NCBI GenBank assembly: GCA_017398425.1
Contig: JAFQFZ010000039.1
Span: forward strand, 5,006-69,005
From: Clostridia bacterium
GTDB taxonomy: Bacteria; Bacillota; Clostridia; Oscillospirales; Acutalibacteraceae
Reading direction: 5' to 3'
Length of the DNA stretch: 64,000 nt
The position numbers and the translations under genes were made by a program. This document shows positions 3,459-63,453 of this stretch, one piece after another (positions within the stretch are counted from its first letter, which is position 1; each line of letters opens with the position of its first letter). The notes beneath the pieces are model-generated. The model was not told the DNA's origin and made no database searches. It saw only the letters and a program-made list of their open reading frames with translations.

Positions 3459-5549
3459 ATGAAGCAGATCATCAAAAGCAGCATCGGCATCCTGTGTGCG
3501 CTGGCGTTATTGTTGACGGCGCTTCCCGCCATCGTCTTGACGACGGAGCCGCTCACGGCGGATGCGGCGGTGACGCACCTTCCCGTGCAACGCCAGTACG
3601 ATGCAAAATGGAAGAACTATTACATCGGCGGTCGTTCCATGTATCAGACCGCTTGCGGTATCTTCTCCATCGTCAACTCGGTCGGTTGGTTGACCGGCAA
3701 GTCGATGGACGTTATGGAAGTGGGTCGTTGGGCGTACAGCATCAAGGCGTTCAACTACTCTTCCGGCGGCACGACACGTTCGTTGCTCTATCCGAAGCTC
3801 CAAGCGAAGTACGGCGCGCAGTACGGCTTCACCGTGGACTGCAACGGCACGCAAGGCTACTGGGCCGGTGCGTCCAGCTCCCGCCTGAAGAATCACCTTG
3901 AGAACGGCGGCGTGGCGATCGCGCACGTGAAGGGTCACTTCATCGCGGTCGTTGATTACGATCGTTCCAGCAACAAGTTCCGCATCTTTGACAGTGCTCC
4001 CAGCTCGGCGCGCGGCAGTAACGTCTACGGCGAGTATGGTCTCGGTGACGTGTGGCTTTCGCAGAGCTTCCTGCAGACGACGGCCAAGATGACCATCGAC
4101 TGGTACTGCCTGCTCTCGAGCACTACGCCCGTGACTCCCGCGGACACCGCGGAAAAGATCGGCACCTGGCAGCTCAACAGCAAAGCGCCCGCCAGCGACC
4201 CCCTCAACGTCCGTGAGGGCCCCGGCACCTCCTACACCGATATCGGTGACTTGGTCCAGGGCGACATCGTCTACACCAGCGAGCTTTCGGGCAGCTGGGG
4301 CAAGATCAAGAAGATGGACAGCGGTCTCGAAGGCTGGGCGAGTGTTTCGAGCTACGCGGATTACATCGGCGTGGACGCGCTCGGCGGCACCCCGACGCCC
4401 GCGTGGGGCGATGTGAGCACCTATCTGGACGAAAACGGTCGCCGCACCATCATCAACAACTCCGCCACCGACACGGTGGGTTACGATTTGCTGTTGCCCA
4501 TCGATATCGGTGTGGACACCACGCCCTACATGAGCCTGCAGATCACCCCGAACTACGGCAACGGCTACTATTTCGGTATTTCGCAAAACGGCAGCAGTCA
4601 CTTCATGTTGCGCGACTGCAGCTCGAGCAGTCAGCTGGTCGTGGCGGAAACCGCGCCTTTCATGACCACGTGGGAGAAGTTGGAGATCGACCTGCGTGAC
4701 TGGTGGAAACCCGAAGGCGGCGAGAAAATCAACATGGTGCGTATCTATGTGGCGCCCTCCTCTTCGATCACGGTTGATTATTTCTACTTTGCCGCGGCGA
4801 GCGGTAAGGTCACCGATACGACCTACAACCTCATTCGTCAAGCGACTCCCATCATTAACGAGAACCTGATGGATCCCAACTCGATCGCAGTCGAGAGCTA
4901 TGATCGCAAAGGTTCCTATTCCTACGACAACGGTCGTTTGACGGTCACCTCCAACAGCCCTGAAGGCTACTCGGTCGTGTTCAACCTCAACAAGGACTTC
5001 AAACCCGCCGAGACGAAGAACTGGCTCTTTGACCTGACTTCGACCACCGGCTTTGACGTGCAGCTCGTGGCGACGACCTCGGTCGGTGATTGGAACTACG
5101 GCTTGGTTGCCGACTTCTGGCCGGGTCTGTGCGATACCCTCGAAGACGGCTATCTCCCCGCCGAGACCTACAAAGGCGAGTGCGACGTGTACAGCTGCTA
5201 CACCTGGAACAACAACCTGCCCGCCAACGGTGTCAGCACCATCAAGCAAGTGCGTGTGGTTCTGGCAGGCGAAGGCACCCTGACGCTGAACTCTTTGCAG
5301 GTTTCCAATACGACCGACATCGTGCGTTATGCGGACGGTCTGCAGAAGGAAGAGACCACCACCGGCGGTCTCAAGGGCGACGTGGACGGCAACGGCTCGG
5401 TTTCGACCGCGGATGCGCGCGAACTGCTGATGCTGCTCCTCACCGGTACCGGTATGGACGACAGCATGAAGGCGATCGCGGACTTCAACGGCGACGGTGA
5501 GGTTTCGACCTCCGATGCCCGTGAACTGCTCCTTTCGGTGCTTCTCTAA
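3459..5549 (+). CDS. Secreted C39-like (papain-fold) cysteine peptidase domain + SH3b + beta-sandwich region + C-terminal dockerin
   Basis: RBS AGGAGG and a signal peptide. Candidate Cys/His pair in YQTACGIFSI and GHFIAVVDYD. SH3-like LNVREGPGTSYTDIGDLVQGDIVY. Dockerin duplicate GDVDGNGSVSTADARELL / DFNGDGEVSTSDARELL. Confidence 0.75.
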   Translation: MKQIIKSSIGILCALALLLTALPAIVLTTEPLTADAAVTHLPVQRQYDAKWKNYYIGGRSMYQTACGIFSIVNSVGWLTGKSMDVMEVGRWAYSIKAFNYSSGGTTRSLLYPKLQAKYGAQYGFTVDCNGTQGYWAGASSSRLKNHLENGGVAIAHVKGHFIAVVDYDRSSNKFRIFDSAPSSARGSNVYGEYGLGDVWLSQSFLQTTAKMTIDWYCLLSSTTPVTPADTAEKIGTWQLNSKAPASDPLNVREGPGTSYTDIGDLVQGDIVYTSELSGSWGKIKKMDSGLEGWASVSSYADYIGVDALGGTPTPAWGDVSTYLDENGRRTIINNSATDTVGYDLLLPIDIGVDTTPYMSLQITPNYGNGYYFGISQNGSSHFMLRDCSSSSQLVVAETAPFMTTWEKLEIDLRDWWKPEGGEKINMVRIYVAPSSSITVDYFYFAAASGKVTDTTYNLIRQATPIINENLMDPNSIAVESYDRKGSYSYDNGRLTVTSNSPEGYSVVFNLNKDFKPAETKNWLFDLTSTTGFDVQLVATTSVGDWNYGLVADFWPGLCDTLEDGYLPAETYKGECDVYSCYTWNNNLPANGVSTIKQVRVVLAGEGTLTLNSLQVSNTTDIVRYADGLQKEETTTGGLKGDVDGNGSVSTADARELLMLLLTGTGMDDSMKAIADFNGDGEVSTSDARELLLSVLL

Positions 5550-6249: not shown

Positions 6250-6393
6250 GCATTTCCCTCCTTAGCGGTATCGTTTTCTTCAGTATATCACAGTTCTTTC
6301 GCAGTCGCAACGTGGAATTGTTATTGAAAATCGAGAGCGGTTGTTTTATAATAGAACCGGATGATATTACCTTGCCTCAAAGGAGGATGCTGT

Positions 6394-9300
6394 ATGAATA
6401 TGTTCGGTCGTATAGTGGGGATCGTGGGCGTTGTGTGCGGACTGTTGCTGTCACCGTTCACGCTGTGCGGTGTCGCACAGGCAGAAAATGCCCCTTTGCT
6501 TCAAAGCGGACGCTTTGAGACGGACAACAGCTTTTTGACCTACGAGCAATATGAAATGCTCGGGTTTGTCGGTTTGGGGTCTGCCGCGTCGCAGGATCTG
6601 GACCCGACCGCGCACCCTCTGCAGGATTACAACGACCCGTCCCTGACCTACACGGGAAACGTGGAATACGGTTGGTCGAATCCGCAGGTGCTCAGCGTGA
6701 TGCTGTCCTCGCCCTACTGGGATGAGCTGAACTACGGTGCGGACATGGGAGCCGCCGGCAGCACCAAATACACGGTGACAAGCGGTGTGGATATCGGCGG
6801 TACACTGGGGTATGACATCACGCTGTCCACCTCCTGCTCGGTGGCGGCGCGCGCGACCGCGGTCGGAAACGGAGCCGGTGCCGGTTTTGATGTGGGGGCG
6901 GCCGCCGGCTTTGCGCAAACGGTGCAGAGAAACAAAACCCAAAGCACGAGCTTTACCTTCGAAGCCGGTGCCGGGGACGACCACGTGGCGATGGTGGTGT
7001 TCCCGATGGCGGTGTATCAGTACGAATGGACGGTGAACGGCGAGAAGCAGTATGTGTTTGCCACAGTCCAGCTTACGCCGGTATTTGCCATGCAGACGCT
7101 CACCAACTACAACCGCGTTGCCAAACGATACAATCTGAACACCGACAGCACGCACTTGGTGCTTCCCGTGTTTGATATGCAGGATATTTGCCCCGGCTAT
7201 ACCCCGGGAGACCCGACAGGATGCTTCTCTGTGGAAAAGGGGTTACCGCAAGGCTTCACGATGATCAACGGAGCCTGGATGCCCTCGACGGTCGGTGACA
7301 CGCCCACCGCCGACCAAATTCGCGGCGAAACGCTGGTCTCCGCCTACGATTACACCGTCAGCCTCGGCAACGCCGACACCGGCGCGGAATCGAGTCTGGA
7401 AGTGTCCACCGCCGTCGGCGTATCGGGCGAAGTGCATGTGGCACTTTCCGGCTCGGTCTACGGCGAAGCCATCGGCGGATTTGATCTGTTTGGGTTTAAC
7501 GGTGAGGTCGCCGTACGGTCCACGTGGGGTGTGGAGTGCGGCGTGTCGCTGAGCACTTCACGCGTGATCAGCCGCGGCAACGCCTATTCCATGGAGTTTA
7601 TCGATCTTCCGTCTTCGGCGGCGACCGGTGTGACGGGACAAAATATCCCGAAAAGCGACTATGCGTTTCAAGCGCGGCTGGCGGTGTGGATGCCGACGGC
7701 CAAAGGGGAAAACGTAGCGTATGCCCCGTGCATCATCAGCCCCTTGACGGAGTTTTCCTCTGCAATGCCGTTGTATTTGCCCGACGATCTGCACGTGTCC
7801 GCTGTGACGCGTGACAGCATCACGCTGGCATGGTCGAACCCCGAAGAGTCGCCGCGCCTGCCGGATGTATATGCAGTGCATATGAAATCGGTCGGCGTCA
7901 CGTCGGCGTATTCCGAACGCACCACCGTCGATGCCGCGGCGCAGTCGATCACGATCGAGGGTTTGACTCCGAACACCACCTATGAGTTCGCGCTGTCGGC
8001 GCGCAAGGGCGAGCAAAACGGCGTGATCGGTCCATCGGTGACGGTGACTACGGTCGGCGACGGCTATCCGACCGTCACAAAGCAACCGACCGATCTGGTG
8101 GCTAAAGAGACGGAGAGAGCGGAGTTTTCCGTCGAAGCCGTGCCGTTTGAAAACGGCGCGAAGCTGACCTATCAATGGTATCGGTTGGACGAGGGACGCT
8201 ACGGCGCTTCGTGGACAAAGCTGATCGGACAAACCTCCGCCGTGTTCAACGCGGCGTACTATACCGCCGACGGTACGATCGGACGTGAAGATCGGGAAAC
8301 GCTTGACGGTACGATCTACGCCTGCCTCATCACCGAACAGCGCGCGTCGGGTGCGGTGAACATCAATTCCAACGCCGTGCGCCTGACCATCGATAACACC
8401 TACACTATCAAGAATTACAAAGAGCTTCGCGAACTGGCGCTCAGGGTGTCGCTCGGTGATCGGGAGGCGGCAAAGGCTACCTACTATCTCGACAACGACA
8501 TCGATGCCGCCGCGGGAGTGGAATGGGACGTCCCCATCGGTAGTGAGAGCGTTCCGTTTGTCGGAGCGTTTGACGGCCGCGGTCATACCATCCGCGGTCT
8601 GCATTACAGCGGCTACGATGCGCTCGGCTACCACGGTTTGTTCGGCGTTGTGTCCGATGCCGAACTGACGCGCATCTCGCTGGAGCAGGTGAACTTCAAT
8701 GTACAAGCCGCGTCGTTCGGTACGATCTGCGGCATGGCCACAAACGCAACAACCATCCGCGATTGCGCGGTCAGCGGCAAGATCAACGTCATCAACCGCA
8801 CCTATGCCGGCGGCATTTGCGGGTATGCGGCGTCGGGCAATGTGACGGTCGAACGTTGCCTTGTGAATGCCGAGATGGACACACGCGTCACCTATGCCGG
8901 CGGCATCTGCGGCTTTACCCGAGGTGATGTTCGCAACGTCGGCGTGGTTGGATCGCTCAAGGCGAAAAACCCCGCGTCTGACGGTCCCGACGGCGATGCA
9001 CCCGCCGGCTACGCGGGCGGTGTGTGCGGCTATTCGAAGGGCACTGTTTCCGATTCCTATTGCCGCGCCGACGTGGCCTACGGTCCGCACTATCGCAGCA
9101 ATATCACCAACGGCGCGCAAAGCAATTGCTATTACTACACTCCCACCGGCAACGGATCGGGTAATGTGCGCAGTGCGGCGGCGTTTGAAAGCGGTCAGGT
9201 CGCCTTTGAACTGAACAACGGCGTGACCGACGGCACACAGCCGTTCTATCAAGATCTCGATAACGGCAACACTCCGCAAGCTTATCCCGTGCTTGTCAAC

Positions 9301-9513
9301 AACGGAGACAACACGGTCTACGCCACCGAAGCGGGCGGTTATTCCAACGTGCAGATCATCGGTTCGTCGCCCGACCGCCCGCAGGACGATGCCGTGTCGT
9401 CGCCGCCGACGGGGGAATCGGATCCGATGTGGCTGTGGATGATCGGTTTGACGGCCATCTCGTTGCTGTCGGTGACTCTGATCGGCAAACGCCGAAAAGC
9501 CAAATCGTATTAA
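6394..9513 (+). CDS. Large surface protein: signal peptide, ~450-aa uncharacterised N-terminal domain, FN3, Ig-like, GLUG-repeat region, C-terminal TM anchor
   Basis: Start moved to the ATG at 6394, 7 nt after AGGAGG (the track starts at 6361). FN3-like LHVSAVTRDSITLAWSNP. YAGGICGY/YAGGVCGY recur as in GLUG motifs. C-terminal WLWMIGLTAISLLSVTLIGKRRKAK. Confidence 0.75.
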   Translation: MNMFGRIVGIVGVVCGLLLSPFTLCGVAQAENAPLLQSGRFETDNSFLTYEQYEMLGFVGLGSAASQDLDPTAHPLQDYNDPSLTYTGNVEYGWSNPQVLSVMLSSPYWDELNYGADMGAAGSTKYTVTSGVDIGGTLGYDITLSTSCSVAARATAVGNGAGAGFDVGAAAGFAQTVQRNKTQSTSFTFEAGAGDDHVAMVVFPMAVYQYEWTVNGEKQYVFATVQLTPVFAMQTLTNYNRVAKRYNLNTDSTHLVLPVFDMQDICPGYTPGDPTGCFSVEKGLPQGFTMINGAWMPSTVGDTPTADQIRGETLVSAYDYTVSLGNADTGAESSLEVSTAVGVSGEVHVALSGSVYGEAIGGFDLFGFNGEVAVRSTWGVECGVSLSTSRVISRGNAYSMEFIDLPSSAATGVTGQNIPKSDYAFQARLAVWMPTAKGENVAYAPCIISPLTEFSSAMPLYLPDDLHVSAVTRDSITLAWSNPEESPRLPDVYAVHMKSVGVTSAYSERTTVDAAAQSITIEGLTPNTTYEFALSARKGEQNGVIGPSVTVTTVGDGYPTVTKQPTDLVAKETERAEFSVEAVPFENGAKLTYQWYRLDEGRYGASWTKLIGQTSAVFNAAYYTADGTIGREDRETLDGTIYACLITEQRASGAVNINSNAVRLTIDNTYTIKNYKELRELALRVSLGDREAAKATYYLDNDIDAAAGVEWDVPIGSESVPFVGAFDGRGHTIRGLHYSGYDALGYHGLFGVVSDAELTRISLEQVNFNVQAASFGTICGMATNATTIRDCAVSGKINVINRTYAGGICGYAASGNVTVERCLVNAEMDTRVTYAGGICGFTRGDVRNVGVVGSLKAKNPASDGPDGDAPAGYAGGVCGYSKGTVSDSYCRADVAYGPHYRSNITNGAQSNCYYYTPTGNGSGNVRSAAAFESGQVAFELNNGVTDGTQPFYQDLDNGNTPQAYPVLVNNGDNTVYATEAGGYSNVQIIGSSPDRPQDDAVSSPPTGESDPMWLWMIGLTAISLLSVTLIGKRRKAKSY

Positions 9514-9518
9514 AAAAA

Positions 9519-9557
9519 CGAATCGCCCCTGCTTTTGAAAAAAGCAGGGGCGATTCG
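9519..9557. terminator. Bidirectional terminator
   Basis: cgaatcgcccctgctttt-gaaa-aaagcaggggcgattcg between convergent genes. Confidence 0.85.
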
Positions 9558-9574
9558 CGTTTCAGATCACGCGA

Positions 9575-12007
9575 TCATCCCAGGAGACTGAGGATGATCT
9601 GACGTGCATCGACGGTGGAGACGGTACCGTCGTGGTTGTAATCGGCGTAGGTGAGTTGTTCTTCGGTAAGTACATTGGGATCGATGGTGTATTTAAGCAC
9701 TTCGCGGCAATCGGTGGTGTTGACCGCGCCGTCCATGGTGACGTCACCGATGTCGTAGGTCGGCTCATCGGGATCGACGGGCGGTTCCACGGGCGGCTCG
9801 ACAACGGGCGGTGCGTTCGGATCGACCGCTGTAATGACGTAGGTGGGCTTACCGGCAAGACCCGGCTTGTGGTAATCAATGCCGTTCTTGTGGCGGTAGA
9901 CCACGCGGTAGAAGGTGTTGGGAGTCAATCCCGTAAAGGTGCCCGATTCCTGCCATGTCTCGCCGCCGTCGATGCTGATATCGTATCCGGTGCGCTCCGA
10001 CACGACGACCGTATCGTGGGTGAAGGACACCAGCGGCGGTACCTGCGAGGTGGCGGTGGTCTTGGTGGTGTATTCTAAGGTGATCGGCTCACTTGTCAGC
10101 GAACCGCGATAACTGCCCGTTGCCGTCACCTTAACGGTGATCTGCGAGCCGATGTACGACACGGCCGGCGTGTAGGTGCTCTTCGTTGCACCCGAGATCG
10201 CTTTGCCGTCGGCGTACCACTGATAGGAGAGCGTCGCGGCGTACGGTTTGACGGTAAACGTACCGGCAGTCAGCGTCGCACGGTATTCGGGAGCGCCGAG
10301 GATCTCCACTTCGCCCGAGATGGTCTTGCCGCTCGCCGTCGCGTAGCCGAACTGCTCGTCCATCCAGGCGATACGACCCTTCATATAGTTCTTCAGATAT
10401 TGCGTCTGCGCAAGCCACGATGTTTCACCGAGCTGAATGGCAGGAACGGAGAGCCACGAGGTGTTCGCGACCGCCGAGTCGTAGTTGTCGTGCCACAGCG
10501 CAAAGTTGTCGTTGGCGGCATCTTCAAGGTAGGGGACAAGACGGTCGATGTCTTCGAAGATCTTCTCAAGGATACCGCGGTCGTGCAGATCGGCCCAGCG
10601 TTTTTCCACCGCTGTGACGAAGCTGTCCATCTCGAACAGATTCTCATACCAGTCGGCGCGTTCGGTTTCGCGCGTGCGCCAACCGGTGGGATCGTCAATC
10701 TTGCTGTAAGCCACGGCACCCGAGCCGAGGTCGAAGTCCCATGCGGGACCCATAAAGAGCTTGCCGTCCTTATCCTTGAACAGCTTGACGCTGGAGAGGA
10801 AGTTGGAGTCGGTGTTTTTGAACGTCTCGTTGATGAGATACCAGTCGATGAAGCCGTCCATGTCGATATAATCCCACACGCGCTCGTCTTGTGCGCGGAT
10901 CAGATCGTTGACGGTTTGCAGATAGGTTTCGATGTAGTTGAGTTGTTCTTTGGAGGGGATCTCCGGCGTTTTGACCTGCACATACAGCTCTTGCTTGGAA
11001 TAGCCGCCGGTGTTTTCGATCACGAAATACGCCGCACCCTCCGATTCGTATTCCGCAAGAACGCGGGAGGAATCCTCGATCTCGAGGTAGTAGCCGACGT
11101 TGCCTTCGGGATAGAGCTGGACATCGTTGTCATCGAATTCGTCGCCGCTTTCGTCGATGGCGATGCGGGTGTCGTCGACCTGCACATGGTCGCCCATGTC
11201 ATACAATCCGAGGTAGGTACCGTTGAGGTACACTTCCACCGGGCGCATGCGCGGCACATAGACTTGGAAACCGGTGGTTTCGGCGGTGAAGGCGCTGAGT
11301 CGCGCACCGAAGCTGTAGGCAACGTCGTTGCGGATGGAAGCGGGATCCAGGAAGTTCGCCAAAAGCACCCAGCTCTTGGCTTTTCCGAGACCGAACACGT
11401 TTTGTTTGCTGTCAAACTTGATGCGATAGGGCTTCTTGTCATACAGCGAGGTGGAGTTGCCGCGCAGTTTGATGCCGCCCGTTGCCGCGATGATGTCCTT
11501 GCCGCCGTAGATGTCCGCACCGAGGACGGAAATCTCCGTCGGAACGTAATTGATCTTGTCGGGAATGGGAGCGTTCTCGGTATCGATGAGCACCACAGGG
11601 ATGCCGTTGTTTTCATCTACGATGGAGATCTGATATTCGGCGCGCGTGTTGTTGCCGTATACGATCAGCTCGTTTTCTTTCTTCAGCGTCACAGCCGTCT
11701 CGCCCGAGGTGATCTCGGTGCCGTTGAAGGTGACGGAATCTCCTTCAAACGCAAACTGCGGGATCAGCTCCGCGCCGACAAGGAGCGGATGGATTTTGGC
11801 GTTTTCCAGCACACGTCCGTCGCAAAGGGCGGTAAATTCCACGTCCCACGCAAGCCAGGCGTTGAGGGATTTCGGGAACGTCAGGGATGTCAGTTGGCAT
11901 CCGTTTTGCCCCCGGTAGACGGTGTAGCTGTCGAATGCCCAAACGGTACTCGGAAGAAGACCGATCAGCATCACGACAGCCAACAGAGTGGCAACGATTT
12001 TTTTCAT
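9575..12007 (-). CDS. cotH: CotH-family atypical kinase with Ig/FN3-like modules and C-terminal dockerin
   Basis: RBS GAGGAGG and a signal peptide. CotH blocks YDKKPYRIKFD, LLANFLDPASIRNDVAYSFG and VYLNGTYLGLYDMGDHV. Dockerin GDVTMDGAVNTTDCREVL / DYNHDGTVSTVDARQIIL. Confidence 0.8.
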   Translation of the reverse strand: MKKIVATLLAVVMLIGLLPSTVWAFDSYTVYRGQNGCQLTSLTFPKSLNAWLAWDVEFTALCDGRVLENAKIHPLLVGAELIPQFAFEGDSVTFNGTEITSGETAVTLKKENELIVYGNNTRAEYQISIVDENNGIPVVLIDTENAPIPDKINYVPTEISVLGADIYGGKDIIAATGGIKLRGNSTSLYDKKPYRIKFDSKQNVFGLGKAKSWVLLANFLDPASIRNDVAYSFGARLSAFTAETTGFQVYVPRMRPVEVYLNGTYLGLYDMGDHVQVDDTRIAIDESGDEFDDNDVQLYPEGNVGYYLEIEDSSRVLAEYESEGAAYFVIENTGGYSKQELYVQVKTPEIPSKEQLNYIETYLQTVNDLIRAQDERVWDYIDMDGFIDWYLINETFKNTDSNFLSSVKLFKDKDGKLFMGPAWDFDLGSGAVAYSKIDDPTGWRTRETERADWYENLFEMDSFVTAVEKRWADLHDRGILEKIFEDIDRLVPYLEDAANDNFALWHDNYDSAVANTSWLSVPAIQLGETSWLAQTQYLKNYMKGRIAWMDEQFGYATASGKTISGEVEILGAPEYRATLTAGTFTVKPYAATLSYQWYADGKAISGATKSTYTPAVSYIGSQITVKVTATGSYRGSLTSEPITLEYTTKTTATSQVPPLVSFTHDTVVVSERTGYDISIDGGETWQESGTFTGLTPNTFYRVVYRHKNGIDYHKPGLAGKPTYVITAVDPNAPPVVEPPVEPPVDPDEPTYDIGDVTMDGAVNTTDCREVLKYTIDPNVLTEEQLTYADYNHDGTVSTVDARQIILSLLG

Positions 12008-12029
12008 GTTGAGAACCTCCTCTTATCAA

Positions 12030-13433
12030 TCAGTCGTCCCTCTCGGAGGAGAACGACAAAATGTCTCCGTTGGCGGCGTCGATGAGATATTCGTATTCGA
12101 CGCCTCGATATTGAAACTCAAGTGCGTAGCGGATGTGGCCGCCTTGGTTTCTTGTGCGGATGTCCACGCGAATCGACAAATCGGGCACGTTGGCGTGCCG
12201 GAGTGCGATCTCCCGCGCTTGCTCGGCGGTAATGGGCATCGCTTTCGTTGCGGTCGTCGCAACGACCGTTGTCGTCGTGAGCGTTGTGGATTTCATGGTG
12301 GTTGAAGTCGCCGGCGTTGTCGAAGTCACCGTTGTGACCGGTGCGATCGTCGTTGCGGGAACCGATGCTTTGGTGGGGATAGTCACTTTGGTGGGTGCCG
12401 TGGTACGGATCTCCGTAGGACGGACGGTGCTTTCGGGACGGTCGTCCGCTTCTTTCTCCGCTTTCAGGATCGTGCCGTCCACGGCGTGAACGAGATATTC
12501 GTATTCCGTGGATTCAAACGTGAATTCCACTTCATAACACAGGACTCCGTTTTCACAGTCCCACTCCGCTTCCAGCTCGGTCACCGCGTCGGCCGTCAGC
12601 GTGGCATGCGCCAGCGCCGCCGCGGTCGCACGTTCGCGCCCGATGTACGCCCGTTCGCTTGCGTGACCGCGTCCGTGGACGGCAGGGAGCGCGATCTTTT
12701 CTGTCAACAAATGCAGGTCGTTGATCGGAAGTGTCGCCAAGCTCTCGAAGGTCTTAGTTTGGAGCGGATCGGCTTCGAGAATGCGACGCACCAACGCCGC
12801 TTTGCCAAGGCTGATGCCATGGGCATCGGCAAGCGCTTTCAGCTCGTCGTCCTTGACGACACGCTGGCTGAGTACCGCGCCCTCGACCTGTTTGTCGGCC
12901 ATGGTGCCGATCACTTCGTCGGTCAATTGTTGTTGCAACGTTTGCGCGTAGGTGTCATCGTCGTTATCAATGGTGATGAGAACGGAGTTTGCGGTATCGC
13001 TCAGATACCCGCCCTCCACCATAGAATCCACCAGCGCATCCACGGTATCGTTCAGCGAACGATCTTTCCAGTCGGTTTTTGCGAGGATCGCCTCGCCGTC
13101 GGCGTTCAGGGCGCGGACTTCAAGCACGGTTTCTTCTTTGTCCATAGAAATGGATACGCTGGGGTTGACGTCGAGCGAGACGACCGTCTCTGTCTTTGAT
13201 GCGAGGGGTAAGGGAGTATCCCTTCTCGAGAAATGCGAGATCATCGCACCGCCGATCACGGTCAACACCAGGGCGGCGGCGACGCTCATGGCGATATAGC
13301 GCCGAAAATGGGTTATTTTCGGGGGAGACGGAGGCGATTCCTCGCACGCGTCCAAAACTTCCTCGGATAAAGGCGGAACGGATAGCGCACCAAACCCATG
13401 TTGAACGTATTGTTCGATCTGTCGTTTTTTCAT
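12030..13433 (-). CDS. Anti-sigma-like single-pass membrane protein with two PepSY-like domains and a Thr-rich linker
   Basis: Start set at the ATG at 13433, forming an ATGA overlap with the sigma gene stop. TM segment YIAMSVAAALVLTVIGGAMISHF. PepSY-like ends (GVLCYEVEFTFESTEYEYLVHAVDGTIL; IRYALEFQYRGVEYEYLIDAANGDIL). No zf-HC2 motif is present. Confidence 0.65.
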   Translation of the reverse strand: MKKRQIEQYVQHGFGALSVPPLSEEVLDACEESPPSPPKITHFRRYIAMSVAAALVLTVIGGAMISHFSRRDTPLPLASKTETVVSLDVNPSVSISMDKEETVLEVRALNADGEAILAKTDWKDRSLNDTVDALVDSMVEGGYLSDTANSVLITIDNDDDTYAQTLQQQLTDEVIGTMADKQVEGAVLSQRVVKDDELKALADAHGISLGKAALVRRILEADPLQTKTFESLATLPINDLHLLTEKIALPAVHGRGHASERAYIGRERATAAALAHATLTADAVTELEAEWDCENGVLCYEVEFTFESTEYEYLVHAVDGTILKAEKEADDRPESTVRPTEIRTTAPTKVTIPTKASVPATTIAPVTTVTSTTPATSTTMKSTTLTTTTVVATTATKAMPITAEQAREIALRHANVPDLSIRVDIRTRNQGGHIRYALEFQYRGVEYEYLIDAANGDILSFSSERDD

Positions 13434-14002
13434 GCAGTATCCCCTTTTTCTAAAATCACACGTAGCTTCTTCAAAGCGCGGCTGTATTTGGACAGCACGG
13501 TCGGTAACGCGAGATGTAAGATTTGGGCAATTTCGCGATGGCGAAAACCACTCACCGCATGCAACACCACGATCTGTCGTTCTTCGTCGGACAGACGGTT
13601 CATGCAAGCGGACAAGGCCAATCGATCTTCGGTCGTGCACGGTATGCGGTCGTCGATCCATCCTTGCTCATCTTCTTCGGAGAGCGGGGTGGTTTTTTGC
13701 CGTGTGCGCAGCACCTGTACACAACGGTTATGTACAATGGTATAGATCCATGCTTTCGCTTTCCCTTGCGGGCGATAGGTTTTAGTGCCATGCACGATGG
13801 AAAGAAAGCTGTCCTGCAACACGTCCTGCGCGTCGTGCTCGTTTTGCACGACGGACAAGGCATAACCGTAGACCTCCTTGGAGATCGCTTCGTACAGACG
13901 CTGTAAGGCGTCACGGTCTCCCTGTCGTACGCGGTCAAGGAGATCGTCCAAATCCGGTGAGGCTGTGCTGTTCGCTACCGACGTCAAGTAGACTGTCAGC
14001 AC
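13430..14002 (-). CDS. ECF (sigma-70 family) RNA polymerase sigma factor
   Basis: Regions 2 and 4 are recognisable (DALQRLYEAISKEVYGYALSVV; LSDEERQIVVLHAVSGFRHREIAQILHLALPTVLSKYSRALKKL). Start set to the GTG at 14002, 9 nt after AGGAG. The track's TTG at 14011 directly abuts the RBS. Confidence 0.85.
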   Translation of the reverse strand: MLTVYLTSVANSTASPDLDDLLDRVRQGDRDALQRLYEAISKEVYGYALSVVQNEHDAQDVLQDSFLSIVHGTKTYRPQGKAKAWIYTIVHNRCVQVLRTRQKTTPLSEEDEQGWIDDRIPCTTEDRLALSACMNRLSDEERQIVVLHAVSGFRHREIAQILHLALPTVLSKYSRALKKLRVILEKGDTA

Positions 14003-14119
14003 ATTTCTCAACTCCTTTCATATACTTTAACGCGTGAACAAGGCATTTTATTGCACCGAATATAAAAAATTACGCGCCGCGACCGAAATTATCAGCCGCG
14101 ACGCGTTGTCGTTGGTAGA

Positions 14120-15235
14120 TCAGCGTTTGGCGCTGAGACGTTCTTTTTTGGCTTTTTTCGAGAAATAGATCTCGTTGCTGACCACAAAGATCAGCGAGAT
14201 CACCATCACAAGGTAGTAGCTGAGCAGTCGCCAGATCAGCATCACGCTGCTGGCATCGAGTTCAATGGCTTCGGTCACGATCTTCTCACCGATCAAGAAC
14301 ATAATGATGCATTTGAACACCTGACAAGCCGAGCCTTCCGTCGAACCCGAGGCACCGGGTGTGGGGATGAAGCCGACCGCAGTGATGGCAAACGACGTGC
14401 CGCACAGCACCATGAAGAAGTGCGAGAAATTGACGGGGATCCCGAGCGCCAACAGCGCAAAGAAGGTCGAACCGTAGAAGAAGACGAATGCGGCGATCTT
14501 GGTCAGCACCGCCAAGAGGCATTCCTTTTTGTGCTTCATCAGATCCGAAAACGCTTCCTGAACCTGCGTGAAATACTCTTTCGCACCGGCTTCTTTGGAC
14601 TTCAAGAACGCGAGCAAGCGAAACTTGCCGAAGAAGCGGATCATGCGAAGAAGCGCGTTGCGAAGTCCTTTGCTGGTGCCCAGCGCGATCATGATGACCA
14701 TCATCGAGAAGTTCAGCGCATAGCCGATGACAATGACGGGAATGAACGCAGGGTCGATGTGAGCGGTCAACTCCTCAAAATAGAACAAGCCGAGCAGCGA
14801 AAAACCGGTCGTCACGATCATGTAAATGATGAGGTTGGTGAGCAACAGACCGGTCGATTCGCCGATCTTCACCTTTGCGCGGGAGAAGGAGTGCGCCTGG
14901 AACGGTTGACCGCCTGTCGCGAGCGGCGTGATGCCGTTGAAGAAAAACTCCGTCATCGCGATCGAATAGGTCAGCTTGCCGGAGATCTTGCATCCGCGCG
15001 CCTTGGTGAGAATGCACAGCGACAGCGGATACAACGCCATGTACACAAGAAGCATGCAGGCACCCAGCAGGATGTACACCGGGTTGGCAGAAGCGAGCTT
15101 TTCCATAATACCCGGCAGGTCGTTGAACGACAACACCGTAAAGAACAGACACACCGCAATCAGCGCATACACCAAGAACAAGACGATCTTTTTTGCGCTG
15201 AGAGGGTTTTTTTGAGACGAATTATCCAAAACCAT
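14120..15235 (-). CDS. Polytopic membrane protein, lysyl-phosphatidylglycerol-synthase TM / flippase-like (UPF0104) family
   Basis: About 8 predicted TM helices. Architecture and length are typical of the MprF-TM-like family. Start set at the ATG at 15235, because a TTGACG-17-TATAAT promoter covers the track's TTG at 15313. Confidence 0.55.
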   Translation of the reverse strand: MVLDNSSQKNPLSAKKIVLFLVYALIAVCLFFTVLSFNDLPGIMEKLASANPVYILLGACMLLVYMALYPLSLCILTKARGCKISGKLTYSIAMTEFFFNGITPLATGGQPFQAHSFSRAKVKIGESTGLLLTNLIIYMIVTTGFSLLGLFYFEELTAHIDPAFIPVIVIGYALNFSMMVIMIALGTSKGLRNALLRMIRFFGKFRLLAFLKSKEAGAKEYFTQVQEAFSDLMKHKKECLLAVLTKIAAFVFFYGSTFFALLALGIPVNFSHFFMVLCGTSFAITAVGFIPTPGASGSTEGSACQVFKCIIMFLIGEKIVTEAIELDASSVMLIWRLLSYYLVMVISLIFVVSNEIYFSKKAKKERLSAKR

Positions 15236-15284
15236 GCTCCTTTCACAGCAAGGCAGAACACCGCTGAGATATGTAGTACAGTAT

Positions 15285-15313
15285 ATTATACCGAATAATT
15301 CGTGATTCGTCAA
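15285..15313 (-). promoter_or_regulatory. Sigma-70-type promoter for the flippase-like gene
   Basis: The minus strand reads TTGACG, 17 nt, TATAAT. Confidence 0.6.
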
Positions 15314-15363
15314 ATGTTGTCGACAGAAATTTACCGATTGTTAAGAAGTTGTAATTAACGCAT

Positions 15364-15405
15364 CTCCCGAAAGCGTCACCGAATCCTCGATGACGCTTTC
15401 GGGAG
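15364..15405 (-). terminator. Long hairpin just downstream of the 15408 gene (possible terminator)
   Basis: A 15-bp stem, ctcccgaaagcgtca...tgacgctttcgggag, with no clean U-run. Confidence 0.45.
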
Positions 15406-15407
15406 GG

Positions 15408-16379
15408 TCAGTCGACGGAAAGATGGACAAAGTTTCCGCTGAAAGACCACACGAAGTCCTCCTCCGGATTGCTTGAGGAAGAGATAAAGTTCAAATCCGA
15501 AATGAGGATTTCGGAATAGGAGGCAGGTGCCAGTGCTTTGAACGTGAGTCGGAAGAGCGGTTCGCCGTTTGTGTGGTTGCCGACCGAGCGGTGCGTGTCA
15601 AATTCGATGCGCACCGTGCCGTCTTCCGATTTGGAGGACGAAAACGCCGTGCCGTCCGGGAAGGCGGTGGCGGCGATGCCGTTTACATAGGGGTTTTGGA
15701 CACCCTCGCCGTTGACTGCGACCAATTCCATCACGTTCGCGTCGTAGGCGACGGTGAGCGAGCCTTTCACAAGGCAGGTCGTTCCGTTTGAGGAAAACGG
15801 GACGGTAAACAGCTCACCGACCGTTCCCACGGTTTCTACGGGAGAAAAGCGGACGAAGTGTACGATCGCTCCGAGCGGCGGCAACATACCACCATCGTGT
15901 TTTGTGGTTGTGGTGGTTGAAGGAACGGTGGTCGGGGAGGTGCTTCCCGTTGTAGAGACCGCGGTCGGCACGGTGGTCGGCGGCACGGTGGTCGGCGGCA
16001 CGGTGGTCCCGACGGTCGTTTGCACTGTAGTGTCGACTGTTGTGACGACGGTGCGGTCGGTGTCCTGCGTTACTTCGGTAGAGCCGGTGGTGGAGACGGC
16101 GGAGACGTCGGTCGATTCGCTCGAAGGCGGAGATGTTGTGTCATGCGGTGAAACGACGGTCGTCGTAACGGACGTAGGAATGGTCGTGGTGGTATCGGTG
16201 CCGAGCGGCACGGGTGTGCGATTGGCAGTGAAAAAGGTGGTTACCACCAACGCCATGGCACCGCAGAGCACGGCACCGCCGCAGATGGCGCGTGTGCGAC
16301 GACGCACCTTGGCAATGTGAATGATGCGTTCTTCACCGCGGCGGTGAATTTCTTGCTTCAACTCTTGCAAATCTCTCAA
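15408..16379 (-). CDS. Single-pass membrane protein: short basic cytoplasmic tail, TM, Thr/Pro-rich linker, C-terminal cohesin-like domain (putative anti-sigma-like partner)
   Basis: TTG start 7 nt after GGAGG, overlapping the sigma stop (TTGA). TM segment AICGGAVLCGAMALVVTTFF. The C-terminal ~150 aa follow the cohesin pattern (GELFTVPFSSNG..LVKGSLTVAYDANVMELVAV...DGTVRIEFD...GEPLFRLTFKAL). Confidence 0.55.
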   Translation of the reverse strand: MRDLQELKQEIHRRGEERIIHIAKVRRRTRAICGGAVLCGAMALVVTTFFTANRTPVPLGTDTTTTIPTSVTTTVVSPHDTTSPPSSESTDVSAVSTTGSTEVTQDTDRTVVTTVDTTVQTTVGTTVPPTTVPPTTVPTAVSTTGSTSPTTVPSTTTTTKHDGGMLPPLGAIVHFVRFSPVETVGTVGELFTVPFSSNGTTCLVKGSLTVAYDANVMELVAVNGEGVQNPYVNGIAATAFPDGTAFSSSKSEDGTVRIEFDTHRSVGNHTNGEPLFRLTFKALAPASYSEILISDLNFISSSSNPEEDFVWSFSGNFVHLSVD

Positions 16380-16921
16380 AACGGCACCTCCTCTCTCGAT
16401 AACAGTTCTTTGAGTTCTTTGCGTGCGCGATACAGCAGGTTGTCTATCTGTTTGGCGCTTTTCTTCATGACGCGCCCCGCGTCCTCGTAGGACAGATCCT
16501 CGAAGTACACTAAGTGTACCGCACTTTGCATGTCGGACGACAATTTTTCGATCGCGGCGGCCAGCGCCAGTGACTGATCGGATTTTTCGATGGGGTTTGC
16601 CTCTTGTGCTTCGTCGATCAACTCGCTGACGTCGGCAAAGCTGTGCGTGTTGCGCCGCTTATGATGGCGCAGATACGTCAGCGCACGGCTGCGACCGACC
16701 ATGAAAACGTACGTTTTCAATGACACCTTGAAGTTGTAGCGATACTTGTAGGCAAACAATTCAACAAAGGTGTCCACGGCAATGTCCTCAGCCGCTTGAT
16801 AATCCTGCACATAGCGATTCAGATAGTTCACAAGCTTGTGGAACATATCGTCCACGATGGCGTCGAATGCGTCTTTATCGCCGTCTATGTAGCGTTGATA
16901 GTGTTCGGCGTTGGTATCCAT
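16376..16921 (-). CDS. ECF (sigma-70 family) RNA polymerase sigma factor
   Basis: RBS GGAAAGGAG. Region 2 (DAFDAIVDDMFHKLVNYLNRYV..AEDIAVDTFVELF) and region 4 (YFEDLSYEDAGRVMKKSAKQIDNLLYRARKELK). Confidence 0.85.
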   Translation of the reverse strand: MDTNAEHYQRYIDGDKDAFDAIVDDMFHKLVNYLNRYVQDYQAAEDIAVDTFVELFAYKYRYNFKVSLKTYVFMVGRSRALTYLRHHKRRNTHSFADVSELIDEAQEANPIEKSDQSLALAAAIEKLSSDMQSAVHLVYFEDLSYEDAGRVMKKSAKQIDNLLYRARKELKELLSREEVPF

Positions 16922-17039
16922 ACGGCTCTCCTTTCCTGCGGAAAACGTCTCACTCTTTATACGACTGCAGAGAGGGGGATTTCCTTATAAAATATCTTTT
17001 TTTTTCAAAATTCGACCTTCGTACTCATGAAAAAGCGGC

Positions 17040-23117: not shown

Positions 23118-26100
23118 TCAGCTTCCCGATACGGTTTTGAACAGACGAAGCGCGTCCATCATATTGATGGTGCCGTCTCCCGTATAATCCGCGATCGCTT
23201 CTTGTTCCGCGGTCATCTCTCTGGCACCGTTGACGCAACCGAAGAGAAGCAGCGCATCCATCGTGTTGAGCATACCGTCTCCGTTCATGTCGCCCAGAAG
23301 CGCGGCCGTGCCGACGGTGATCTCAACGTAATCGTATTCGTCGAATCCCGTCGTGCCGTCCCACGGGGTCATCGCGTCACTGCCGTATTCGCTGACTGTC
23401 ACCGTGGCGCCGTCAGCGATCGACACATCGCACCATGCGATCGCGTAATCGATGGGTGTACGGGCAATGAGCGTGCCGCCGTTGACCGTCACCGGCGGAT
23501 AATCGTCGCCGTTGATGCCGCACTGCGGCCCGTACACGTCCAGTGTGCCGCCGTTCACCGTCAGGCTTTTATACAGCCAGAGGCCGTCGTATTTATTGTC
23601 CTTCACGACAACCGTGCCGCTGTTCACCGTGACGTCGCCCGTTGCAAAAATTCCTTCGCCGTTCGTGATCAGCGTCAAGTCGCCGTCACCCTCCAACGTC
23701 AGCGAGCTGCCGGTGACGATGCCGTTGGCGTTCGGCGACGTCAGTGTCGAGGACAGCTCCGTCTTGATTGTCAGCGGGTGATAGGCGTCAACCATGTTAT
23801 AATCGCCCTGCGCTGTCCACGTAAAATCATGCAGCGTCAGTACGCCGTCTTTGTAGTAGGCGTAGCCTGCGTCCTTGTCAACAGTATCTTCGGTTCGGAC
23901 ACCCCAATGATCGCTGTCGAGATACAGGCCGTCCCGCAACCACATACCGCCGACGAACACGCCGTCGACGTTTTTGGCAAGTTCGAAGGTGCGTGCCGCT
24001 TCGACCGTGTTCACGGCACCGTCATCCGTGTTGCTGTCGGTCGAATAGACAAAGCTTGCGGGAACGCCGTCCACGGTGACGTTAACGGCAAGGGTGCCTT
24101 CGTTATCGGTGGCAAACCAACCGCCGTCGTACGTTTCCAACGTCGCGTACACCTGATGGCGGCGATCGGATTTGAACTTACCGTCCAGTCGGCTGAAGCC
24201 GGCTCCCGCCGTACCCGGATTGGTTTCATAGTACCACTCCAGCCCCGTGTAATTTACAAGGTCGGTTTTGACGACTGCGTCGCTGTCGGGTGTTTTGCCG
24301 CCGATCGGATACTGCACGTCCACGATCTCGATATCGGTGATGCACGAGGCGGTGTCGTATTCGGCGTACACAACCGCCGCTTCATCCGTCAGATAATAAT
24401 ATTGTGCGAACTCGCCGTTGAGCACCGCACCGCGGGAGTCAAGATTGATGGACCGTCCCGCAGACGGAAGGAGACGGATCTCGACCCGATACACGGTGTT
24501 CTTCTTGAAGCATTCCTCATAGGAAAGCGAAGCGATCCGATATCCGTTGTCATCCAGCTCATACCACGTCACACCGCCGAATTGTGTGTAGGGACTGCTG
24601 ATCGTCACGTTAAAGTCGGGCGCTTGTCCCGGCGCAGGGCGCATCAGTTCGCCGATCTCCGCATAATCGGTCACACCCGTATAGGAAGCCTCCCCAAGCT
24701 CACCGTATGCCCACAGAACGCTCGCCGTACATCCGTCATCACTAACAACGATGTTCAGACCGGTAGAGCCGTCATAACCGTTATACAGGGTTTCGTTGCC
24801 GTTGACCGATCCGCGGATCACGGCGGTCTGTGCAAACGTATACGGTTCTGCCGCTTCCACGGTATACACCGCGCTGTACGTATTTCCTTTTCGGAACGTC
24901 GTGTTCTCGGCCATCGTATGGCCGTTTTCGATCCACGTCACGCCGGTGACGGTGGCATAGGGCATCAACGCTTCCGTCAGCGACGCGTCGGCATAGGGGC
25001 GCTGTCCGACGGACGGTGCCACCGCGCCGATAACGTCGATGCGGTTGATCGGATCCGGTAAGGAAGCGAGCGGAATATAAAGCGCGGCCACCTGGATCTG
25101 TTTTGAAGATACCGGCTGAAAGTTCGTTTGAACCGCACCGCGGACAGACACGTTGAGCGGTTGCTCGTCCGTTGAAAAGTCACTCAAAGAATCCGCGGAT
25201 ACGCCGACCACCCACGCATAGAGGTAACCTTCTTCAAAAACGTCATTTACGGTCAGCTCACGGATCTCGGATTCGTTCTCGCTGATGCGCAACCACGTAA
25301 GATCTACGGATTCTTTAGCGGCGGGAATATCCTCTTTGTATCCGTATTCTACGGTGGCCACCGTATCCACCTTGTTTCCGACTACGGGAGTACGGATATC
25401 GGTGAAGGTGATATCCTCAATGGTACGGGACGTGCTGTTACAGGCGGGAAAATCAAATGTGACCTGCACGATCTGTGCAGGACTTTGATCGCCGTACGGT
25501 TCCACTCGTGCAGGCAATCCGTTGACAGTGGCACGGATATACGGATCGACCGTGCCGTCCTCGTGCAAAAGGTAACAAAGGCGCGTGCTGTCCTGGAAAA
25601 TCGATTTGGCTTTCACCAGTACCGTGACGCTGTAGTCGGCGCCCTCGTTGAACACCGAATTGCTGTTACACGTGAAATGATTTGTGCGGTTGACCCATTT
25701 GACACCGTCATAAAACCCGTTCGCGGTCACGGGTGCGTATTCGCAGTTTTCGCCGTAAAGTGTCGGCGCGTACGACGCTTTTTTGCCTGCCACGGGATAC
25801 GGGATATTCAGACCGATACGGTCGGCACCGCCGCCGAGAACATCGGTGTCGGCGCAGGTGAATTTGGTGCGAAGCTTCAAGTAGCGGCTCTGATCCTCTT
25901 CTTGCGCCGAGATATTGACAGCCTCAATGCCTTCAACGGTTGCGTTTACGGCACTTTCTCCGCCTTCGGTGGCAAAACGGTAAGGATCTTTGGCTCTCAG
26001 CTGTATTTCCATGGTATAGGTTTCGCCCGCTTTAAAGGTATCGGTTTCGTCTAAAATGGAATACGTATTGCTGTTATACCACGCAACGCCGTTGATAAAC

Positions 26101-32134: not shown

Positions 32135-32219
32135 TGCAAAAACCACTTGCGTGAACGAGGCTTTCCTTGTACAATAGAGACAGACCTTGAATAAAAACGG
32201 AAAAAGGAGTTGCGATTTC

Positions 32220-47852: not shown

Positions 47853-47938
47853 GAAAACTGCCTCCTTACAGCGGAATTCCTGAGAATGGGTCAACCTTGC
47901 ACCTGCAAAATTGACGCGTTGCATTCGCAACAAAATCA

Positions 47939-47967
47939 ATTATAGCCCCTTTTTTTGCGTTTGGCAA
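47939..47967 (-). promoter_or_regulatory. Promoter of gdhA
   Basis: The minus strand reads TTGCCA, 17 nt, TATAAT. Confidence 0.6.
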
Positions 47968-48021
47968 GCGTTTTTTGCAAGTTTTTGGTTCAAAAAATGC
48001 AAAAAATTTTTAAAAACCGTA

Positions 48022-48050
48022 ATGACTTTTTTGTCTTTTTGTTGTATAAT
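48022..48050 (+). promoter_or_regulatory. Possible promoter of the 48088 gene
   Basis: ATGACT, 17 nt, TATAAT. Confidence 0.45.
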
Positions 48051-48087
48051 GGGCGTAGAGATACTATCAACAGCGGAGGTGTTTGGG

Positions 48088-63432: not shown

Positions 63433-63453
63433 CAAGATCACTCCTTTTTGAGA

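Follow-up and report, generated by a model that had tools for sequence, protein, structure and literature searches.

Cohesin–dockerin pairs are known for a structural role, holding together cellulosomes, amylosomes and related assemblies. The known regulators of such systems, SigI/RsgI, sense the polysaccharide substrate and not the complex. Here we analyse a 64,000-nucleotide stretch (the window, 64 kb) of a Clostridia metagenome-assembled genome (MAG; contig JAFQFZ010000039.1 of assembly GCA_017398425.1), in which six minus-strand open reading frames (ORFs), all co-oriented, lie within 7.3 kb at positions 9575–16921. They encode two extracytoplasmic function (ECF) sigma factors (sigma1 and sigma2), a membrane protein with a cohesin, a flippase-like protein, an anti-sigma factor of sigma1 and a CotH protein with a dockerin. 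We find that the genes for sigma2 and the cohesin protein form what appears from sequence comparison to be a separable 1.6-kb cassette, dispensable within the species, and predict that the cohesin protein is the anti-sigma factor of sigma2, which we consider likely. On balance it also seems probable to us that the six genes are three units adjacent by chance, with the sigma2/cohesin cassette being a separable ECF sigma/anti-sigma-like pair that senses dockerin proteins.

In PMC3413522, PMC4711584 and PMC10328401 the sensing modules described for RsgI proteins are carbohydrate-binding or glycoside-hydrolase domains such as CBM3, CBM35, CBM42, PA14 and GH10, with no cohesin among them, and PMC10328401 documents that the periplasmic domain of RsgI cleaves itself at an Asn-Pro motif. 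With B. subtilis as heterologous reporter host, sigmaI6 was shown to activate the promoter of CseP, a CotH–dockerin protein of Clostridium (Acetivibrio) thermocellum (PMC4711584). Single-cohesin proteins anchored by a transmembrane (TM) helix have been described solely as putative anchoring scaffoldins (PMC11557425), and a paper on the 'mucinolysomes' of Acutalibacteraceae does not mention sigma factors (PMC12997984). Full-text searches of an open-access library, combining cohesin with either anti-sigma or ECF, turned up no account of an anti-sigma factor that bears a cohesin.

Set beside these systems, the sigma2/cohesin cassette resembles an ECF sigma/single-pass anti-sigma pair with a putative new type of sensor. 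As in SigI/RsgI of C. thermocellum, a predicted membrane anti-sigma factor would be co-transcribed with an alternative sigma factor from an autoregulated promoter, and a stalk-borne extracellular binding module would report the state of a cellulosome-type system outside the cell. Unlike SigI, sigma1 and sigma2 are canonical ECF factors with region 4.2 (both carry Sigma70_r2 and Sigma70_r4_2 and match TIGR02937 above its cut-off); RsgI_N was found in neither partner, the cohesin protein has no periplasmic autocleavage domain, and its cohesin would bind a protein, whereas RsgI sensors bind polysaccharides. With RpoE–RseA, SigW–RsiW and SigV–RsiV the cassette shares the order of sigma and then (putative) anti-sigma gene, translational coupling, a predicted N-in, C-out single-pass topology and an autoregulatory-type promoter with an AAC/GGAA-type −35 and a CGT-type −10 element; unlike in those pairs, the cytoplasmic segment is ~30 aa long, with no detectable anti-sigma domain (ASD) or zinc-binding anti-sigma domain (ZAS), and a cohesin is carried on a long Thr/Pro-rich stalk. 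The membrane- or wall-anchored scaffoldins, such as OlpA/OlpC of C. thermocellum and the TM-anchored single-cohesin proteins listed in PMC11557425, likewise present one surface cohesin on a linker and anchor in a dockerin-rich organism, but the cohesin protein differs from them in its N-terminal TM helix and conserved cytoplasmic peptide, in the overlap of its gene with that of an ECF sigma factor, and in having no S-layer homology (SLH) domain or sortase signal.

The C terminus of this 323-aa protein is a true cohesin, because a Pfam match, a profile search of the PDB and structure prediction with AlphaFold2 (AF2) and Foldseek agree. The full-length protein had no Pfam or NCBIfam match; searched alone, its C-terminal 159 aa passed PF00963 with 29.3 bits against a gathering cut-off of 24.1 (E = 1.1e-06), and the homologue P0002 bears a precomputed PF00963 match. 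A subfamily profile built from the eleven closest cohesin domains (alignment A2) matched cohesins only among PDB sequences, with end-to-end matches including 6kgc, 2vn5 and 5nrk. A single-sequence AF2 prediction was poor (predicted local distance difference test, pLDDT, of 50) and was replaced by a model from the 11-sequence alignment, which is all-beta (pLDDT 64, predicted TM-score 0.66) and agrees, at moderate model confidence, with the nine-stranded beta-sandwich (jelly-roll) fold of cohesins. The top 50 Foldseek matches of this model in the PDB were all cohesins, with TM-scores of about 0.5–0.7. The domain is divergent, with 21–38% identity to the ten subfamily cohesins aligned with it in A2.

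An initial annotation of this DNA had described a membrane-anchored cohesin, the only cohesin-like domain seen in the window. Both points held up, and the cohesin, predicted to be extracellular, is genetically coupled to an ECF sigma factor. A six-frame scan with the subfamily hidden Markov model found no other copy in the window, and Pfam scans of its other large ORFs found no further cohesin. The cohesin gene, which starts with TTG and overlaps the sigma2 stop by 4 nt, encodes a cytoplasmic N terminus of ~30 aa (16290–16379), a TM helix (16224–16289), a Thr/Pro-rich linker (15888–16223) and the cohesin (15411–15887). A basic RRRTR followed by a 22-aa hydrophobic helix predicts a type-II single-pass protein, N-in and C-out, which would place the cohesin outside the cell. 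The Thr/Pro-rich stalk, ~110 aa long, is like the wall-crossing regions of RsgI proteins (PMC10328401). It contains 15-nt tandem repeats encoding PPTTV (15950–16010), and a 318-aa allele (P0001) differs from the cohesin protein by one PPTTV unit, making the linker polymorphic in length. Exactly the same cohesin protein occurs on at least eight ruminant-gut metagenome contigs, six of which are 99.95–100% identical to the window.

Proteins of this architecture are rare. When the cohesin domain was used by itself in a word-index homology search, not even the cohesin protein was recovered, and exhaustive HMMER over 1.84 billion representative proteins was used instead. Only two other proteins shared the architecture, P0002 (327 aa) on ruminant contigs (L008–L010) and P0003 (341 aa) in an Acutalibacteraceae MAG (L007); the further relatives were scaffoldin-like cohesin proteins of the types Coh-Doc, Doc-Coh-Coh and Coh-SLH (Coh, cohesin; Doc, dockerin). 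We took as reliable relatives P0002, P0003, P0021, P0031, P0032, P0034, P0044 and P0045. Long multi-stretch matches, most of them resembling scaffoldins, were discarded; those whose sequences were inspected were actinobacterial WD40 proteins, matched on 'LPDGT...DGTVR'. The cohesin segment AFPDGTAFSSSKSEDGTVRIEF draws WD40-repeat proteins in phmmer (among hits P0004–P0043, E down to 1e-13), a trap for automated annotation of this cohesin subfamily. A genome scan with an alignment of the cohesin-bearing anti-sigma-like protein found one locus only, and a scan of Joint Genome Institute (JGI) metagenomes with the same alignment found nothing. The cassette is rare, with three lineages among the 1.84 billion representatives.

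In the window, L007 and L008 alike, the sigma–cohesin gene pair is kept with its 4-nt overlap. Sigma2 is homologous to the solved ECF factors AlgU/RpoE/SigW in a PDB search, and is 72% identical to its orthologues in L007 and L008 and just 20% identical to sigma1. Upstream of all three sigma2 orthologues stands the motif TAAGG(G)AAA-N13/14-GTCG(T/A)ATAA, which has the character of an autoregulatory promoter with −35 and −10 elements conserved in three lineages; the overlap and this promoter, each found in three lineages, support the coupling of the membrane cohesin to the ECF sigma factor. In L007 the pair is followed by a gene for a BspA-type leucine-rich-repeat (LRR) protein ending in a dockerin, and a sigma2-type motif precedes this gene as well. 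In L008–L010 a homologous LRR protein (36–38% identity), ending in three SLH domains, follows the pair, its gene in L008 beginning 45 nt downstream of the cassette. The conserved output of sigma2 in these relatives thus appears to be an LRR surface protein.

A pattern search of the window allowing at most one mismatch found the sigma2-type motif once, upstream of sigma2, and with a position weight matrix (PWM) this promoter scored 40.5 against 14.5 for the next-best site, which lies inside a gene. Neither the pattern search nor the PWM scan of the window found a sigma2-type promoter near the CotH, sigma1 or flippase-like gene, so nothing places these three genes in the sigma2 regulon. The scan for relatives of sigma2 also returned L016 and L041, which were set aside as more distant ECF factors with no informative partner. 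At L016:520-1300 a promoter-like AAAAATTTTCCAACGAACGACCGTAACTTTTTTC occurs both upstream and directly downstream of an ECF sigma gene whose product is 33% identical to sigma2, and this locus may be another autoregulated ECF factor with an adjacent target.

Several features of the cohesin protein argue for an anti-sigma function. Its gene lies immediately downstream of the sigma gene, its product is a predicted single-pass N-in protein, and the N terminus is its most conserved region, with 17 of 34 positions invariant in the three-lineage alignment (50%) against 30 of 159 in the cohesin (19%). A second metagenome scan yielded a further locus (L015; JGI/NCBI metagenome contig JAEIGA010490341.1, 703–1931) in which an ECF sigma gene, its product 44% identical to sigma2, overlaps the downstream gene. 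The partner encoded there begins with a short basic N terminus and a TM helix, which a low-complexity Ser/Glu/Pro-rich linker joins to a serpin domain (PF00079, 56 bits) that is cut off by the contig end. Because the coupling recurs in L015 with a serpin protein as the partner, the sensor module appears exchangeable on a common chassis in the sigma2 clade, and the serpin system may point to a clade of ECF anti-sigma factors that sense proteins and not small molecules or glycans. The serpin-tipped protein itself might serve as bait for proteases or as a sensor of them.

The strongest competing explanation is that the cohesin protein is a plain membrane-anchored single-cohesin scaffoldin, transcribed by sigma2 and with no anti-sigma function. 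A single cohesin with a TM helix is a plan already proposed for non-SLH anchoring scaffoldins (PMC11557425), the scaffoldin-like types of the nearest cohesin relatives would fit, the LRR dockerin next to the cassette in L007 would need an anchor, and no anti-sigma domain is detectable. However, a passive anchor has no need of a cytoplasmic N terminus, here the most conserved part of the protein, and the translational coupling to an ECF sigma factor is strictly conserved. The coupling of a related sigma factor to the parallel serpin protein is, moreover, a modular-sensor pattern typical of anti-sigma factors, and in L008 the cohesin is retained although the LRR protein is anchored by SLH domains. 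We therefore consider a scaffoldin without regulatory function unlikely and favour a cohesin-bearing anti-sigma factor.

Several points weigh against a dockerin-sensing anti-sigma factor, foremost that no recognisable anti-sigma domain (ASD/ZAS, RsgI_N or similar) was found: residues 1–164 matched no Pfam family at E ≤ 10, and a PDB search gave no meaningful match. The cytoplasmic part, at ~30 aa, is shorter than classical anti-sigma domains, and BLASTP detected no significant similarity between this N terminus and that of the L015 serpin partner; no paralogue of the N terminus was found in any locus compared. The three lineages that carry the cassette are too few for an analysis of co-variation, and the AF2 model of the cohesin is only moderately confident (pLDDT 64). 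The L008 LRR protein has SLH domains and no dockerin, so the co-regulated neighbour is not a universal ligand of the cohesin. The scan for sigma2 targets covered the 64-kb window, and targets elsewhere in the genome would escape it; CotH could conceivably be linked to the cassette through an unrecognised promoter or solely at the protein level.

A second alternative keeps the anti-sigma function and changes the ligand, with the cohesin-fold domain sensing no dockerin but, for instance, a glycan or a component of the host or the wall, in parallel to the carbohydrate-binding-module (CBM) sensors of RsgI. Cohesin-like modules do occur outside cellulosomes, for example in C. perfringens GH84/GH33 proteins and in Archaeoglobus, which were among the Foldseek matches, and the domain is divergent both from Pfam (29 bits) and from its subfamily. 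Set against this are the abundance of dockerins in the organism, with five dockerin or dockerin-like genes in 64 kb, and the occurrence of the closest cohesin relatives in proteins with dockerins or SLH domains, as in a working cohesin–dockerin network. Even the non-cellulosomal C. perfringens cohesins (2jh2, 2o4e) bind dockerin-like partners. A ligand other than a dockerin is accordingly improbable in our view.

Signalling by cohesin and dockerin through sigma2 is plausible and would proceed as follows. The conserved basic head of ~30 aa would most likely sequester sigma2 in the cytoplasm, and the ~110-aa Thr/Pro-rich stalk would carry the cohesin through the cell wall to the outer face, where it would bind a dockerin on some protein that is secreted or sits at the surface. 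Docking, or the loss of docking, would change the proteolytic removal of the anti-sigma factor and free sigma2, which would then fire TAAGGGAAA-N13-GTCGWATAA promoters, namely that of its own operon and, in relatives, that of the gene for the BspA-type LRR surface protein. Binding of sigma2 by the N terminus, binding of a dockerin by the cohesin and proteolytic signalling are steps that we infer. That the cohesin–dockerin interaction serves here, as a first example, as the input of transmembrane signalling, with an anti-sigma cohesin monitoring the presence or docking of dockerin-bearing surface proteins, is a tentative proposal that we think less likely than not. If it is true, cells would gain transcriptional feedback on the assembly state of a cellulosome-like surface network, and the cohesin-tipped anti-sigma factor would be a direct route from protein–protein docking at the surface to transcription. 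As a receptor it would be compact and open to engineering, in that swapping the cohesin would swap the protein ligand.

Comparison with near relatives of the MAG separated the cassette from its surroundings. L011 and L012 were the two nearest members found by searching with anti-sigma1. L011, of the same species, has flanks with 95.9–97.5% DNA identity and a CotH protein 98% identical, and carries pyrE, the flippase-like gene, sigma1, anti-sigma1 and CotH in this order, with window positions 15379–16979 missing. L012, a contig of GCA_045630705.1 from a sister species (91–93.5% DNA identity), also retains pyrE–flippase–sigma1–anti-sigma1–CotH, without 15361–17029. Because the sigma1–CotH operon persists without the cassette in both, the cassette is separable from it. 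In L011 the bases directly 5′ of the sigma2 −35 element are kept and run straight into the 3′ arm of the cassette hairpin, an arm that forms the right-hand deletion boundary; because both the upstream remnant and the hairpin arm are retained, L011 looks like a deletion derivative. Neither direct repeats nor a target-site duplication flank the cassette, and the genes nearby include no integrase or transposase. Conversely, the cassette loci of L007 and L008 have no CotH gene, flippase-like gene or second ECF gene nearby, nor are their flanks related to the window. Of the six-gene stretch, only this 1.6-kb cassette merits follow-up.

The features of the stretch, and the other dockerin genes of the window, are collected in Table 1. 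All six genes and their domains were confirmed, in agreement with the minus-strand anatomy originally described.

Table 1. Coordinates of the sigma2/cohesin cassette, its neighbours and the other dockerin genes in the window (protein accessions in NCBI belong to the MBQ46175xx series)
Feature	Position	Strand	Evidence or sequence
ECF-type promoter of sigma2 cassette	16955..16987	-	TAAGGAAAT-N13-GTCGTATAA
sigma2, ECF (group 4) sigma factor, 181 aa	16376..16921	-	Sigma70_r2, Sigma70_r4_2, TIGR02937
Cohesin-bearing single-pass membrane protein, 323 aa, putative anti-sigma2	15408..16379	-	PF00963, PDB profile, AF2 + Foldseek
Stem-loop closing sigma2/cohesin cassette	15364..15405	-	13-15 bp stem cccgaaagcgtca...tgacgctttcggg
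Presence/absence polymorphism, 1,601 bp	15379..16979	.	blastn co-linearity + three-way alignment A3
sigma-70-type promoter TTGACG-17-TATAAT of flippase-like gene	15285..15313	-	11/12 positions match
Flippase-like membrane protein, 371 aa from ATG at 15235	14120..15235	-	PF03706, TIGR00374
Intrinsic terminator 3′ of flippase-like gene	14072..14106	-	15-bp stem, then T-run
sigma1, ECF sigma factor, 190 aa, GTG start	13430..14002	-	Sigma70_r2, r4_2, Sigma70_ECF
anti-sigma1, 467 aa	12030..13433	-	RsgI_M (PF23750) + two PepSY domains
Secreted CotH-dockerin protein, 810 aa, last gene of sigma1 operon	9575..12007	-	CotH, Dockerin_1
Strong intrinsic terminator 3′ of CotH gene	9518..9558	-	19-bp stem, then T-run
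SH3_3-Doc protein	3459-5549	+	
Cthe_2159-Doc protein	23118-26684	-	
Weak LRR-like protein, degenerate dockerin	47911-48858	+	LRR_5 19 bits, dockerin 16.8 bits, both sub-threshold
Small dockerin protein, 299 aa	62542-63441	-	

The six genes are best read as three independent transcription units, juxtaposed by accident in this strain: unit A (16987–15364) with sigma2 and the cohesin protein, unit B (15313–14072) with the flippase-like gene alone, and unit C (14002–9575) with sigma1, anti-sigma1 and the CotH–dockerin gene. We separate them because promoters, terminators and the cassette hairpin delimit them and because the gene overlaps are confined within them. A terminator scan found strong intrinsic terminators 3′ of pyrE (17060–17035) as well as of the flippase-like gene (14106–14072) and of CotH (9558–9518); it missed the cassette stem-loop (15405–15364), whose tail is not T-rich. 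The 4-nt and ATGA overlaps, and the 22-nt gap before CotH, all fall inside units and never between them.

Unit B holds a housekeeping-type gene. PF03706 (2.4e-24) and TIGR00374 span residues 48–389 of the flippase-like ORF, whose start, the ATG at 15235, is that called in metagenome contigs; only the LPG_synthase_TM domain is present, and no aminoacyl-phosphatidylglycerol synthase domain was found in the protein with Pfam or NCBIfam. We therefore rejected an identity as MprF in favour of a stand-alone flippase-like protein; the flippase-like membrane domain and the TTGACG-17-TATAAT promoter of the initial annotation are borne out. The sigma-70 promoter is conserved in L011 and L012, both without the cassette. 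We rejected the gene as part of either sigma unit because a separate promoter and terminator serve it, and both persist unaltered where the cassette is missing.

In unit C, anti-sigma1, whose ATG overlaps the sigma1 stop as ATGA, consists of a short cytoplasmic N terminus, a TM helix, an RsgI-like periplasmic domain, a PepSY domain, a Thr-rich linker and a second PepSY domain. RsgI_M (PF23750) matched with 101 bits (E = 9e-29), and VSLDVNPSVS, with the Asn-Pro motif, stands just past the TM helix; such a periplasmic domain was found in anti-sigma1 alone and not in the cohesin protein. The CotH gene follows after 22 nt that hold a ribosome-binding site and no terminator, and its product has an N-terminal signal-like sequence (MKKIVATLLAVVMLIGLLPSTVWA), a CotH domain (PF08757, E = 1.2e-44, 153 bits) and a C-terminal type-I-like Dockerin_1 (PF00404, E = 7.8e-09, 36 bits), the signal peptide–CotH–dockerin plan of CseP (Cthe_0044). 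The unit thus has two likenesses to SigI/RsgI of C. thermocellum, in an RsgI-type periplasmic domain that bears the Asn-Pro motif and in a CotH–dockerin protein, CseP there being a target of sigmaI6 (PMC4711584; PMC10328401). CotH would, like CseP, be transcribed by an alternative sigma factor; unlike CseP, it is encoded inside a sigma/anti-sigma operon, the sensor is PepSY and not a CBM, and extra Ig-like modules lie between CotH domain and dockerin. Membrane-bound anti-sigma1 would hold sigma1 until a signal triggers regulated proteolysis, upon which sigma1 would transcribe the operon including the CotH–dockerin gene.

The sigma1–anti-sigma1–CotH order is preserved in L011, and CotH is probably cargo of the sigma1 operon; it is not required for the sigma2/cohesin cassette and is probably unconnected to it. 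CotH–dockerin proteins, ECF pairs with RsgI_M/PepSY anti-sigma factors and stand-alone flippase-like proteins are ordinary; the anti-sigma1 family alone matched more than 1,500 members, and two distant relatives (L013 and L014) have neither a CotH nor a flippase gene adjoining. Between conspecific strains anti-sigma1 is 84% identical (to P0046 of L011), while the adjacent CotH is 98% identical, and the divergence is concentrated in the Thr-rich linker between the PepSY domains and in the C-terminal PepSY domain, suggesting that the sensor end evolves rapidly or has recombined.

A motif scan and Pfam together found five dockerin or dockerin-like genes in the window, among them CotH. Three further dockerin proteins (SH3_3-Doc, Cthe_2159-Doc and the 299-aa protein), taken with genes for glycoside hydrolases of families 31 and 36 (28689–31172 and 32187–34397), indicate that this uncultured ruminant Clostridia MAG has a cellulosome-like surface system rich in dockerins; the window itself shows no scaffoldin. 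At this density, the probability that a dockerin gene lies within ±3.4 kb of an arbitrary point is about 0.35–0.41, so the initial annotation's statement that the co-location of cohesin and CotH dockerin is unlikely to be accidental was not confirmed. The dockerins also come in two flavours. Helices of the form [ST]-[TGV]-x-D-[AC]-R occur in CotH and in the products of 3459–5549 and 62542–63441, and helices of the form N-[TM]-[MA]-D-[AT]-[LM] in the L007 LRR dockerin and in the products of 23118–26684 and 47911–48858; if the L007 LRR dockerin is the ligand of the cohesin, CotH would be of the wrong flavour, which we offer as a lead only. The degenerate dockerin of 47911–48858 reads GDMDLNATTNTMDAL ... 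ADVDRNDTINMMDAL. This gene was rejected as a displaced LRR orthologue, with only 27% local identity to the L007 LRR–dockerin protein, sub-threshold domains and no sigma2-type promoter.

That all six genes form one self-contained signalling island, with the CotH dockerin bound to the cohesin and both sigma factors jointly passing this docking on to transcription, is therefore very improbable: the genes are co-oriented within 7.3 kb, cohesin and CotH dockerin are both real and the arrangement is kept on six contigs at least 99.95% identical, but the neighbourhood is not conserved, an outcome that the initial annotation itself had named as refuting its model (the cassette is gone from conspecific and sister-species contigs that retain CotH and sigma1, and its bearers elsewhere have unrelated contexts without CotH, flippase gene or second ECF), terminators stand between the units, the sigma2 motif is absent from the rest of the window, the base rate of dockerins is high, and the CotH dockerin (T-T/T-V ... 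D-C/A-R) differs in flavour from the L007 LRR dockerin (N-M-x-D-x-M-L).

Convergent with the CotH gene, 6361–9513 on the plus strand encodes a 1050-aa surface protein with fn3, GLUG and M26_N-like segments and no dockerin. Its C terminus is a hydrophobic anchor, where an LPXTG-like match is weak and falls below threshold, and the protein could be an adhesin or a protease-like wall protein.

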